In this document: positions 4,976-63,385 of the stretch, one piece after another
Numbering within the stretch: the stretch's first letter is position 1
How the letters are laid out: each line of letters starts with the position of its first letter
From: Octopus vulgaris
Taxonomy: Eukaryota
Length of the DNA: 64,000 nucleotides
Direction: 5' to 3'
Assembly: GCA_951406725.2 (NCBI GenBank)
Contig: OX597825.1
Span: 14,694,001-14,758,000 of the forward strand
Notes under the pieces: model-generated
Told to the model about the DNA's origin: nothing
Database searches by the model: none
The model's input: the letters and a program-made list of their open reading frames with translations, nothing else
Position numbers and translations under genes: made by a program

Positions 4976-6957
4976 CTGCAGTGGACTGGACTAGGGCAAT
5001 CCCAAATCCAGTCGAATCCTACCACTTAAGGTTCACAAGTTCGAAAGAAAAATAAGAAAAGATGTTTTAAATTTCTTTTTTTTATTTCTCCCGGCAGAAC
5101 ACATATCGTAAGGATGTAAGACAAAATAACATAATAAATGTCTATGCCGATTGGCATCGTTATAATTCGATCATAATTACTGAAGTGAAAGCTTGTTGGC
5201 TACGTTCAGAGCAATGCCAGTCTGCAAAATACTTTTAGTTCTCATTTCACATATCGGCATAGCATTCTACCATTATAAATGACATTACGAATGACATTAT
5301 CTAGCTTCAGTTACATTTCTAATATTTATAGAAAATCCTGAAGCTTACGAATAGCAGAATGAAATCACCCGCGAAAATGCAGTTATCATGAGATTACAAT
5401 ATATTAAGATTAAAGTAATAAATCAAACAGTGGTAAATCTAATATATTTACTTTAATAAATATTGATATTTGTTTAATGACTCTTCTAATCATATAAGAG
5501 CTGAATCTTTCAAATAGCAAGACCACCATATAAGCTGTCGGTTTCCACTACATTGATTTGAAATAACGATTTACTCACAACTCTAAGCATAAGTAAAGTA
5601 TACGTGAGGATACGATATTTGGCTATGAGTTATTATACCTTAAGTTCTAAACTACCGAACAGTTTTCATCTGAATTTAATAATGATAGTTAAGACCATGT
5701 ATTTCAATTATCTTTACCGTTCATCTTGTTTCAGTCGTTGGACACAGGTCATGCTGGGGCATGGCATTGAATGGTTTTGTCGAAAAATCGTCTCAAGAAC
5801 TTGTGCTTTTAGGGTTTCTTACTTATTCTATCGGTCTTTTAACTCAACTACGAAGTGATGAGGAAATAAAAACAGCTTTTTTAAAAATTACTTTTGTAAT
5901 ATAATGGGTTTTATATCCAAGTGTAGGGTGGTGGGCGGACAGAATTATTAATACACCAGACTAAATACCTGACGGCATTTAATCTGTCTTTCGACGAGGT
6001 TGACTTTGTCTTTCATCCTTTCGGGGTCGATTCACTAAGTACCATTTCATTACTATGTTCAATGTCATAGAATTACCCCTTAACTAAAATTCCTGCCCTA
6101 GGGCCAAAATTTTAAACTAATATATCGAAGTATAATTATATATTTGACATCCATGTATAATTATGTGTTTGACGAAGCTAAACAGCAGTTATAATTAGTC
6201 ACTGAAGTTCAAAATGTAAATAATACATTTTTCTTTATTTCGTACTGAAATTTAGGAGTTAAGCAGAGGCCCTGACTATTTTACGAGCCAGCGGAAGGAG
6301 GAAGGAATTTAACTTCAGTGTGGATACCTGGCGTGAGAATCTGCAATATTAAATACACCCGTAATGTATGTACTGATCTGAAATTCGATGACAGCTTAAA
6401 TCCACCCTTCTGGAAATTATCTGTTGCAACAATGAGAATAACTATGAGGATTTAGTAGCGGATTACATCTACTTATGACTTTCCTGGCAACTACCCATTC
6501 ACAGCTTTGCAAATATTAATTTGCTCTTTACTTAAATATCTTCAATAGCTTTAGATTACAAGATTGAGGACGACAATCTAAGAAATCTCAAGTGATAGCT
6601 ATATCGGATACAATCCCTGTACATGCGATAATGTTTTTAAAACACATACGAAAACATATTAATATATTCACTTGCCTGGTTTTCTCCCTAGGGTCATTTT
6701 ACACGTTAACGCAAATTGATAGCATATTTGTCTAACCCAGCTGCGATGCAGATCTCCCCTCTTGTCATCCATATTGTTCATATATTACATTTGTCCTTCG
6801 AATATCTCTGTTGAACTGCTCCATTTGAGTTTTAAGTTTTCATTCCATTGATCTTTGTCCATTCATTTTTTCCTTGCACTTTAATGCTAAGGATTTCTAC
6901 TGCATTCGATATTGCGCAATGTACGATGTCAATTAGATGCGTTATATATTCAACATG

Positions 6958-14409: not shown

Positions 14410-14820
14410 AGGCGCAGGAGTGGCTGTTTGGTAAGTAGCTTGCTAACCAACCACATGGTTCCGGGTTCAGTCCCACTGCGTGGAATCTTGGGCACGCGTC
14501 TTCTGCTATAGCCCCGAGCCGACCAATGCCTTGTGAGTGGATTTGGTAGACGGAAACTGAAAGAAGCCTGTCGTATATATGTATATATATATATATGTGT
14601 GTGTGAATATGTTTGTGTGATTGTGTTTGTTCCCCTAGCATTGCTTGACAACCGATGCTGGTGTGTTTACGTCCCCGTCACCTAGCGGTTCGGCAAAAGA
14701 GACCGATAGAATAAGTACTGGGCTTACAAAGAATAAGTCCCGGGGTCGATTTGCTCGACTAAAGGCGGTGCTCCAGCATGGCCGCAGTCAAATGACTGAA
14801 ACAAGTAAAAAGAGAGAAAA
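14410..14820 (+). mobile_element. tRNA-derived SINE family B (CORE-like segment, internal microsatellite), full length
   Basis: ggcgcaggagtggctg..tggtaag head, ggttcagtccc B box, cttgggca(a/c)g segment, internal TA/TG, tail aaacaagtaaaa; many copies in the window. Confidence 0.9.
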
Positions 14821-36044: not shown

Positions 36045-36456
36045 CTCTTTTACTCTTTTACTTGTTTCAGTCATTTTGATTGCGGCCATGCTGGAGCACC
36101 GCCTTTAGTCGAGCAAATCGACCCCGGGACTTATTCTTTGTAAGCCCAGAGCTTATTCTATCGGTCTCTTTTGCCGAACCGCTAAGTAACGGGGACGTAA
36201 ACACACCAGCATCGGTTGTCAAGCAATGCTAGGGGGACAAACACAGACACAAAAACACACACACACACATATACATATATATATACATATATACGACAGG
36301 CTTCTTTCAGTTTCCGTCTACCAAATCCACTCACAAGGCATTGGTCGGCCCGGGGCTATAGCAGAAGACACTTGCCCAAGATGCCACGCAGTGGGACTGA
36401 ACCCGGAACCATGTGGTTGGTTAGCAAGCTACTTACCAGACAGCCACTCCTGCGCC
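36045..36456 (-). mobile_element. SINE family B, full length
   Basis: Reverse complement of 14410-14820. Confidence 0.9.
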
Positions 36457-50551: not shown

Positions 50552-50605
<54 letters not shown>

Positions 50606-50765
50606 CAGGAGTGGATGTGTGGTCAGAAGCTTGCTGCTCAATCACATGGTTCCAGGTTCAGTCTCACTGTGTGGCAACTTCGGCAAGGTTCTTATACTAT
50701 TGCTTCGGGTCGACCAAAGCCTTGCGACTGGATTTGGTAGACGGAAACTGAAAGAAGCCCATCGG

Positions 50766-50796
<31 letters not shown>

Positions 50797-51006
50797 GCAA
50801 TAATAATTCTCTAAACGAGATATAGACAGTAACTGCTCCATAACGTAAGGGACGTTAGCCATCTGAATGTGGCTAGGGACAGGGCAGGGCGCTGGGGGTG
50901 TTACTGATGCATTTAGCCCCAGGCGATCATCAACGTCACCAGGAGGGCTGACGCCATCACGGCGTCCTCTAGCCTGCAAAGGGAGATCATTCCCCGAAGA
51001 AGCGGA

Positions 51007-51059
51007 TGCCACATACGGACCTAGGTTTCAAGGTGTTTGCCTATTATCAACGTATGGCA
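51007..51059 (-). ncRNA. Type-I hammerhead ribozyme, U3-A8 core variant (mirror copy)
   Basis: Exact reverse complement of 51165-51217. Confidence 0.7.
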
Positions 51060-51164
51060 GGCACCGCCCCTCGACGAACGGATTTTCTACATCAGTAAAT
51101 GTATTTACTGTGAAAATCTGTATATATAGCCTGCACAGAGAGTCGTTCATCGAGGGGCGGTGCC

Positions 51165-51217
51165 TGCCATACGTTGATAATAGGCAAACACCTTGAAACC
51201 TAGGTCCGTATGTGGCA
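51165..51217 (+). ncRNA. Type-I hammerhead ribozyme, U3-A8 core variant
   Basis: catacg-TTGATAA-tagg-caaaca-cctt-GAAA-cctagg-TC-cgtatg: 6-bp stem I, stem II agg/cct, palindromic stem III ACCTAGGT, GUC triplet at 51204-51206. Confidence 0.72.
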
Positions 51218-51380
51218 TCCGCTTCTTCGGGGAATGATCTCCCTTTGCAGGCTAGAGGACGCCGTGATGGCGTCAGCCCTCCTGGTGACGTTGATGATCG
51301 CCTGGGGCTAAATGCATCAGTAACACCCCCCAACGCCCTGCCCTGTCCCTAGCCACATTCAGATGGCTATCGTCCCTTAT

Positions 51381-51641
<261 letters not shown>

Positions 51642-52140
51642 GTATCTGCGTGCCTGTGCTCGCCCCCTTTCCAGCTATTGACAACTGATGTCGGTGTGCC
51701 TACGTCCCTGTAACTTAGCATTTCGGCAAAGGAAACCGATAGAATAAGTACTAGGCTTACAAAGAATAAGTACTCCAGCACGGCCGCAGTCACATGACTA
51801 AAACAAGTAAAAGAATATATATATATATATGTGTGTGTGTGCATGTGTTTGTTGTTCTGCAAGTGTTTGTTATTGTGGAAGTGTTAGTACTGTTGTTGCA
51901 TGTCTTTTATTTTTATAAGCATAGATATTGCGTGAGCGATGTGTTCAGGTGAGTTGTTTTATTGACGTAAATTTTCACATATTTACCTATGCAAATACAT
52001 GTCCTTCAGGGTGTGCGTATATGCATATATTTTAATCCAGCTATCTATCCAGCTACCTAGCTATTCCTGTGTGTGTGTGTGTGTGTGTTTATGTCTGCGT
52101 GTTTATCTGCGCACGCGTGAACTCATATATATATATATAT

Positions 52141-54096: not shown

Positions 54097-54452
54097 CTGC
54101 ATGGCATCTTGGGAAAATGTCTTCTACTATAGCCTCGGGCCGACCAAAGCCTTCTGAGTGGATTTGGTAGACGGAAAGTGAAAGAAGCCCGTCGTTTATA
54201 TATATATATATATATATATAAATATGTGCATGTATGTTTGTGTGTCTGTGTTTGTCCCCCTAGCATTGCTTGACAACCGATGCTGGTGTGTTTATATCCC
54301 CGTCACTTAGCGGTTCGGCAAAAGAGACCGATAGAATAAGTACAGGGCTTACAAAGAATAAGTCCCGGGGTCGAGTTGCTCGACTAAAGGCGGTGCTCCA
54401 GCATGGCCGCAGTCAAATGACCGAAACAAGTAAAAGAGTAAAAAGAGAGAGA
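54097..54452 (+). mobile_element. SINE family B lacking its head
   Basis: ctgcatggcatcttggg.. to aaacaagtaaaagagtaaaa. Confidence 0.88.
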
Positions 54453-62626: not shown

Positions 62627-63385
62627 AGGCGTAGGAGTGGCTGTGTGGTAAGTAGCTTTCTAACCAACCACATGGTTCCGGGTTCAGTCCCACTGCGTGC
62701 CATCTTGGGCAAGTGTCTTCTGCTATAGCCTCGGGCCGACCAATGCCTTGTGAGTGGATTTGGTAGACGGAAACTGAAAGAAGCCTGTCGTATATATGTA
62801 TATATATGTATGTGTGTGTTTGTTTGTCTGTGTTTGTCCCCCTAGCATTGCTTGACAACCGATGCTGGAGTGTTTACGTCCCCGTCATTTAGCGGTTTGG
62901 CAAAAGGGACCGATAGTATAAGTACTGGGCTTACAAAGAATAAGTCCCGGGGTCGATTTGCTCGACTAAAGGCGGTGCTCCAGCAAGGGCCGCAGTCAAA
63001 TGACTGAAACAAGTAAAAGAGTAAAGGCGTAGCTGTGTGGTAGGCGGCTTGCTTCACAGCCACATAGCCCTGTGTTCAGTCCCACTGCGTGGCACCTTGG
63101 GCAAGTGTCTTCTACAATAGCCTCAAGCTAGCCAAAACCTTGTGATTGGATTCCTTAAACGGAAACTGAAAGAAGCTCATTGTATGTATCTTCGCGTTTG
63201 CATTAATCCCCACCCCTTCGCTTAACAACCAGTGTTGGTGTGTTTATGTTCCCGTGACTTAGTAGTTCGGCAAAAAATTGATAGAATAAGTACAAAGCTT
63301 AAAATATGTACTAGCATGGATTCTTTCAACGAGAAAATTATACAAGGGGAGGCTCCAGCGAGACTGTAGTCTACTAACTGAAAGT
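62627..63385 (+). mobile_element. Two tandem SINE family B copies (young 62627-63025, diverged 63026-63385)
   Basis: The second head ggcgtagctgtgtggtag starts right after the first tail. Confidence 0.85.

Follow-up and report, generated by a model that had tools for sequence, protein, structure and literature searches.

Why does a short inverted repeat in the genome of Octopus vulgaris carry two hammerhead ribozyme motifs on opposite strands, both with a U3-A8 pair in the core? They could be a functional pair, parts of a coding element, or arms of a mobile RNA, with or without a working ribozyme. We addressed this question starting from the window, that is, the whole stretch of 64,000 nucleotides (64 kb) that was analysed.

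A single two-armed insertion in the window

The features that matter here are the following.

50605..50790, plus strand: 5' part of a split host repeat, with the insertion at its central TA tract
50796..51080, minus strand: left arm of 285 bp, from unit position 294 across the cleavage site to 222 (as placed by BLAST on a natural tandem monomer)
50796..50839, minus strand: 44-nt tail (unit positions 179-222), in the left arm only; its outer end adjoins (TA)n
51012..51056, minus strand: left type I hammerhead, identical motif; core TTGATAA from 51050, C17 at 51018, predicted cleavage between 51018 and 51017
51075..51080, no strand: inversion junction, a 6-bp overlap of the two 5'-truncated arms
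51075..51385, plus strand: right arm of 311 bp, tail-less, from unit position 225 across the cleavage site to 178; its outer end adjoins (TA)n
51168..51212, plus strand: right type I hammerhead, comprising stem I, the U3-A8 core, a stem II closed by U·U and a palindromic helix III
51168-51173 and 51207-51212, plus strand: stem I, catacg and its distal strand cgtatg
51174-51180, plus strand: core TTGATAA, with U3 at 51174 and A8 at 51179
51181-51184 and 51191-51194, plus strand: stem II, TAGG and CCTT, with loop CAAACA
51195-51198, plus strand: GAAA, followed by CCTAGG, U16.1 (51205) and C17 (51206)
51198-51205, plus strand: palindromic helix III, ACCTAGGT
51206/51207, plus strand: predicted cleavage site
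51631..51817, plus strand: 3' part of the split host repeat, beyond a long (TA)n

A type I hammerhead is present in each arm, with U3-A8 in its core, GUC as the cleavage triplet and a helix III that is palindromic. This had been proposed in the first-pass annotation, and we located identical parts on the plus and minus strands. The inverted arms described there as a 235-bp palindrome are real, with corrected dimensions: they measure 241 and 242 bp (50840-51080 and 51144-51385), differ by 5 mismatches and 1 indel, and are separated by a 63-bp spacer, while the left arm is 44 bp longer. The whole insertion spans 590 bp (50796-51385). Likewise, stem I does have the 6 bp claimed for it, but in the predicted fold its extension includes an internal loop (UGC over U). 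In the 64 kb window, 2 sites matched a relaxed type I descriptor, both in the palindrome, and the same descriptor found a mean of 0.01 sites, with a maximum of 1, in 100 block-shuffled windows. Note that the two sites are copies of one repeat and are therefore not independent evidence.

The halves of the host repeat are contiguous in other copies within the window (e.g. 62633-62945 and 54102-54363). This repeat, which we take to be SINE-like, occurs with its central microsatellite about 10 times in the window, for example at 14414, 36129-36453, 45816, 54102, 61188 and 62633.

The arms are pieces of a tandem, non-coding unit

The genome searched comprises 2.8 Gb in 227 contigs. A DNA search gave 51 matches from the 40 scored of 1,616 candidates. 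Several of these matches were tandem, which defined a 356-nt unit (355-362 nt across copies), and the arms in the window are circularly permuted pieces of this unit spanning the cleavage site. A 23-mer taken from its 3' part has 3,022 exact copies in the genome, compared to 0 for the control. Tandem arrays reach up to 9 units in one arm. The largest insertion observed (L179, G000:C1:31009300-31013700) has 9 units in one orientation and 3 in the opposite one; its units are near-identical and belong to the subfamily with U4C.

In trimers of the unit from two subfamilies, the longest ATG frames encode just 104 and 50 aa. The family consists of tandem repeats within the 170-400 nt range of retrozymes, each with a type I hammerhead and without protein-coding capacity. 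In its anatomy, the unit is a non-LTR retrozyme. The predicted circular folds of four natural monomers scored z values of -3.4 to -5.7 against 60 dinucleotide shuffles each. Pieces of the unit were present in 20 of the 24 listed sequencing runs, which carry four organism labels, and none of the listed carriers is recorded as RNA. Both A8 and G8 were present in 3 of the 4 runs compared. Two runs that we guessed to be RNA yielded one 390-nt contig each, self-closing at a period of 360; we discarded these as a sign of circular RNA, since a tandem array gives the same result.

Two further observations concern the unit. In one locus, a duplicated family fragment (L236:2584-2620 and 6164-6200) has homology up to the predicted cleavage site and no further, ending after GTC; this represents one event. 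In addition, the old clade (L087, L088, L092 and L075) carries ATTTGCAT, which resembles an octamer promoter motif, about 40 nt upstream of the core; this sequence is altered in the younger subfamilies.

Insertion ends resemble those of Penelope-like elements

We then considered the ends of 138 distinct insertions, leaving out loci incomplete at the edge of the retrieved sequence. Most of them were found via the ribozyme, which favours long arms but not any particular pairing of ends. The two-armed form is the commonest in this sample (82/138), its truncation points are arbitrary, and 87 inverted junctions were available. The outer ends of the arms lie at unit position ~178 or ~222, that is, without or with the tail. 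Of the 65 inverted junctions with two classifiable ends, 63 combine a tailed with an untailed one (p 5.8e-17 under independence of the ends); the other 22 of the 87 have at least one end outside both classes. TA repeats adjoin 173 of 203 classified ends. Most inversion junctions are blunt or show an overlap of 1-6 bp, so that the 6-bp overlap in the window falls within the rule (0-6 bp). Among the 51 arms sampled by the 3' 23-mer alone, 25 are longer than one unit, and the longest arm measures 3,279 bp. The tail was recognisable in all nine copies compared, from young and old subfamilies, and the tail and both ends are common to older relatives, ~60% alike, that carry CUGANGA.

In Penelope-like elements (PLEs), an inverted truncated copy is accompanied by a tail of 30-40 bp at only one of the ends (PMC8557442). 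On AT-rich DNA, the Penelope protein of the anole cuts and extends both strands, and its reverse transcription begins at a pair of internal sites flanking the tail (PMC11167929). As occurs with PAc of Anolis and EN+ PLEs, the octopus insertions have AT-rich, often microsatellite, targets and an inverted 5'-truncated copy with a one-ended tail (PMC11167929, PMC8557442), and, as with PAc, two internal start sites, putative in the octopus, define this tail (PMC11167929). In contrast to PAc and EN+ PLEs, the tail is 44 nt rather than 30-40, and the template is a non-coding repeating unit. By analogy, we infer a Penelope-type mechanism that would operate on a circular or multimeric template.

The hammerhead fold is kept while its core changes

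To follow the fold, we aligned 38 hand-picked subfamily representatives, found by the core pattern. In this alignment, 94.3% of the cells were paired, compared to 84.9% in shuffled alignments and at most 53.4% in slid controls, and 9 of 15 pairs had changed on both sides; relatedness alone can beat such a shuffle control without structure. Helix I was paired in 98.2% of the cells, with 3 of its 6 pairs changed on both sides, helix II in 83.6%, and helix III was 99.3% self-complementary. The 3-8 pair was C-G in 16, U-A in 12, U-G in 8 and other in 2 of the 38. The GUC site and A15.1-U16.1 hold across the subfamilies of this pattern-biased set. The first pair of helix II (10.1-11.1) was unpaired in 22 of the 38 representatives, so the U-U mismatch, correctly noted in the window copy and held there as a caveat, is a lineage trait and no copy-specific defect.

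The palindromes of helix III succeed one another as CCCGGG, CTGCAG, CTATAG, CCGG, CCTAGG and CCATGG. This succession of self-complementary sequences is the best sign that dimer pairing has been selected and, together with the covariation of the stems among subfamilies, argues for selection of the fold. The earlier expectations that the stems are kept across copies and that the motif belongs to the Penelope-associated type I hammerheads, with a helix III of the dimer type, were thus borne out. A cofolded dimer forms helix III (-35.2, compared to -15.4 per monomer); in a natural tandem dimer, the predicted probability of the inter-unit helix III was only 0.29-0.34. The window copy has no Rfam hammerhead match at E<=10, but neither does a CUGANGA relative, which makes this result uninformative.

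The core itself varies. Among 136 close copies of the window hammerhead, the 100 listed included 86 with U3-A8, 14 with U3•G8 and none with C3 (hand count). As proposed, U3-A8 is thus no private decay; it is the state of the subfamily and not of the family. The wider, younger clade has 2,752 hammerheads. The 100 listed (all from the beginning of contig 1, counted by hand per unit and not per insertion) comprise 51 CCGAYGA (C3-G8 with U4C), 24 U3•G8, 23 U3-A8 and 2 C3·A8, so that, with positions 3 and 8 both free, only Y3 and R8 occurred. All 37 copies of this clade with C3-U4 were inspected: 30 have C3·A8 and 7 have CUGANGA. It follows that a CUGANGA search would miss the clade, as the first-pass annotation had anticipated (7 of 2,752 copies match). 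A core-unbiased sample collected with the 3' 23-mer (37 insertions, 58 hammerheads) gave 49 CCGAYGA, 6 U3•G8, 3 U3-A8 and 0 canonical cores. The older diverged clade has C3-U4 (576 matches, control 4), with A8 in 12 of the 100 listed. An early idea of U3 as a fixed state throughout the family did not hold, given the C3-bearing subfamilies.

To order these states, we reduced 207 rows to 77 and built a tree in which positions 3, 4 and 8 were masked, rooted with the diverged clade as outgroup. Its trunk leads from old C3-G8 to U3-A8, U3•G8, again U3-A8 (with a C3·A8 side branch), U3•G8 and finally U3-A8, the subfamily of the window copy. A sister branch leads from U3-A8 via U3•G8 to C3-G8 with U4C. 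The tree has approximately 7 changes at position 3, 10 at position 8 and 1 at position 4, counts that could be inflated by copies apparently recombinant between subfamilies. A single origin of U3-A8 was rejected (AU p 5.6e-8, on 66 of 129 rows, a set that did not yet include the U4C subfamily). We propose that U3-A8 is one tolerated 3-8 state, reached and left by transitions, mostly via U•G. The first-pass annotation had inferred selection rather than decay from two changes at paired positions. These changes do not show selection of U3-A8 specifically, since U3•G8 was amplified equally, C3·A8 reached 30 copies, and C3-G8 with U4C forms the largest subfamily.

The window core (UUGAUAA) departs from CUGANGA and keeps a Watson-Crick pair at positions 3 and 8. 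Since it is a published tolerated variant, its description as canonical is weakened, but not the statement that it works like a hammerhead. Nor is the compensatory pair new: it has been described in Penelope hammerheads (PMC4209133) and elsewhere (PMC3088659).

Other repeats in this genome have similar cores. Locus L061 (G000:C28:372603-376124) has, on the minus strand near locus position 537, another tandem repeat with a period of ~250 nt and its own U3-A8 hammerhead, with a TTGAAAA core, a G-C closed stem II and a CGCG palindrome; its sequence suggests another family with the U3-A8 swap. The motif TTGACAA ... GAAACCTAGGTA, with a longer spacer, recurs at G000:C2:136134722, C2:215451875, C3:3650036, C3:4442265 and C3:167721449, and is possibly a further U3-A8 hammerhead family.

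A proposed route of mobilisation

Our preferred reading, to which we assign a probability of about 0.65, is that the window contains a retrozyme-type insertion likely copied by a Penelope protein into (TA)n, whose hammerhead is predicted to be weak and to cleave as a dimer only. In this scheme, tandem arrays would be transcribed, and adjacent hammerheads would pair via the palindromic helix III and cleave slowly at GUC. The monomers would then be circularised, or uncut multimers would persist. A Penelope protein would cut both strands of a TA tract, and each DNA end would prime at either of two internal start sites with a spacing of 44 nt. Both cDNAs would be extended back across the ribozyme site, in many cases over more than one unit, and would truncate variably, before being joined by 0-6 bp of microhomology to generate the palindrome.

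Alternative explanations

The rival that survives best accepts the same mobile element but holds that its hammerhead is dead or irrelevant: positions 3, 4 and 8 would drift between master copies, and the fold would be kept for RNA dimerisation or protein binding. All four Y3/R8 combinations have been amplified, C3·A8 included, and position 8 changes more often than 98.7% of 157 downstream columns (mean 3.2 changes). Moreover, hammerhead mutants are inserted normally by the anole protein in vitro (PMC11167929). The amplification of C3·A8 and this in vitro result would be compatible with a ribozyme that has lost its importance. The 5' ends of the arms were also examined. A first hint of a pile-up at the cleavage site came from 4 ends against 0.71 expected in 51 arms, with the interval chosen post hoc, and from 6 against 3.2 in all 203 arms (p 0.10). 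Genome-wide, no pile-up was found at this site: there were 13 truncations per 51 anchor copies, compared to 4 per 17 at the control (13 true truncations of 16 matches and 4 of 4, respectively, with anchors counted in one sample). The DNA record is thus without a trace of cut linear templates, which fits circular or uncut templates and gives cleavage no support.

Against a dead hammerhead, G5, A6, A9, G12, A14 and A15.1 are constant in the 58 core-unbiased copies, with A13 varying once. The cleavage triplet and A15.1-U16.1 persist (in the pattern-biased set), positions 3 and 8 do not leave Y3 and R8 among the 100 listed, and the mismatched C3·A8 is limited to ~1% of the clade (30/2,752). Furthermore, U3-A8 and U4C have been reported as active or viable (PMC3088659). 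We regard a dead or irrelevant hammerhead as unlikely.

A second rival takes the arms as 5'-truncated pLTR remnants of an autonomous PLE whose ORF went unsampled, in line with the pLTR placement initially proposed for this motif. Opposite-strand dual hammerheads 100-700 bp apart do occur in truncated Schistosoma PLEs (PMC4209133), and the tail and the inversion are PLE features. However, the long arms run from unit into unit, for up to 9 turns, and not into an ORF. No ORF was found between hammerhead pairs 1.6-3.6 kb apart, none of the copies examined had a reverse transcriptase-endonuclease ORF joined to the unit, and PLE protein matches near unit copies were unlinked fragments. In these copies, the unit does not flank an ORF with RT and GIY-YIG; it is a stand-alone tandem unit, not the pLTR of a coding element, and we consider the remnant explanation very improbable.

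The search for an autonomous partner retrieved an abundant young PLE (L256:5745-7910, plus strand, and L257:3010-5163, minus strand; 19,277 first-look candidates). Its open frames of 718-722 aa have RT and GIY-YIG motifs recognised by eye, with no significant Pfam match, and a CTGAAGA...GAAA core lies upstream of the ORF. This PLE also makes inverted insertions, with two ends ~70 nt apart beside TA repeats. In the comparison with this one PLE family, no sequence similarity to the unit was detected, and the tail differs, at ~70 nt. A PLE fragment upstream in L246 was rejected as partner, being degenerate and not joined to the unit.

That the palindrome itself is functional, with selection at this locus for twin ribozymes or for a hairpin RNA, can practically be dismissed: the motif is intact on both arms, which are ~97.5% alike, but two-armed insertions with arbitrary truncation points are the commonest form in the sample, and RNA read through the entire palindrome has a predicted folding energy of about -535 kcal/mol and a stem I probability of 0.

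The pair in the window, called twins in the first-pass annotation, is not a functional twin but lies in the two outward-facing arms of one insertion. The two hammerheads lie on opposite strands and cannot dimerise within one transcript, and burial in the long hairpin makes their joint action in read-through RNA unlikely. In single-arm RNA, the predicted stem I probability is 0.90-1.0. The window copy would probably not serve as a source of ribozyme, except from transcripts that begin between its arms.

Comparison with known systems

Metazoan non-LTR retrozymes have repeats of 350-390 bp in mussel and 330/350 bp in axolotl (Cervera and de la Pena 2020, PMC7229834). The octopus family shares with them a ~360 bp non-coding tandem unit, one type I hammerhead and a highly self-paired predicted circle. 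It also shares the U-U at the base of helix II with the axolotl HHR_Amex2, which is self-cleaving, and better so as a dimer (PMC7229834). In contrast to the classical cores of those retrozymes, CUGANGA is exceptional in the younger octopus clade, and inverted two-arm insertions with a one-sided tail are not mentioned in the available text of PMC7229834. Circular RNA has been demonstrated for metazoan retrozymes (PMC7229834), whereas the octopus circle is a prediction.

The closest match for the core is found in the Cercyon PLE of Schistosoma mansoni, with ~1,300 matches to its U3-A8 hammerheads, which have low activity as dimers (Cervera and de la Pena 2014, PMC4209133). Both systems have the U3-A8 core, a palindromic helix III and opposite-strand pairs. 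The Cercyon motif lies in the pLTRs of coding elements and has a long helix II and a short helix I, whereas the octopus hammerhead has a 6-bp helix I, a helix II of 3-4 bp and no ORF. Natural U3-A8 covariation is active in vitro, and U4C in a viroid reduces activity to a level that is still sufficient (Perreault et al. 2011, PMC3088659). There, such variants are rare exceptions in unrelated ribozymes; in the octopus lineage they are successive and dominant. Cleavage of hammerheads as dimers has been reviewed (PMC6765202).

PLEs were proposed as helpers of animal retrozymes from co-occurrence (PMC7229834), and a 2026 preprint ties retrozymes to PLEs by co-occurrence and by pLTR homology and phylogeny (bioRxiv 10.64898/2026.07.22.740005). 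Literature listings on Octopus hammerheads, U3-A8, C3U/G8A and inverted, tailed retrozymes contained no description of the octopus family, although Lunse et al. or the supplements of the 2026 preprint may already list it. Dimeric variants of PLE hammerheads are reportedly treated by Lunse et al., and 3-8 exchanges are said to have been studied by Przybilski and Hammann.

Implications

The family is a retrozyme variant that combines Penelope insertion ends with lineage-wide non-canonical cores; the U3-A8 swap itself is already published and is one state among several. Its value lies in these lineage-wide cores and in the genomic evidence for Penelope-type mobilisation. As regards Penelope help for animal retrozymes, here the insertion ends themselves bear the signature, with the one-tail pairing in 63/65 junctions and arms longer than one unit. 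The dated ladder of core variants in one sequence context also provides a test series for whether a lower cleavage rate goes with greater amplification. In practical terms, censuses based on CUGANGA can overlook nearly all copies of a family.

Earlier work on animal retrozymes raised the question of how a circular RNA escapes re-cleavage when its hammerhead is exposed (PMC7229834). Taking the results jointly, it is conceivable, though we hold it only tentatively, that the lineage has been selected for a throttled ribozyme and that one Penelope complex primes both ends on circular RNA. Under this joint reading, CUGANGA would not have returned as the master state (7/2,752), the lineage passing through U3-A8, U3•G8 and U4C, while the fold was retained and the helix III palindrome re-invented. 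If this is true, weakening of the core would be how RNA circles avoid cutting themselves again, and the strict one-tail rule would reflect staggered priming by one Penelope complex rolling round circular RNA.
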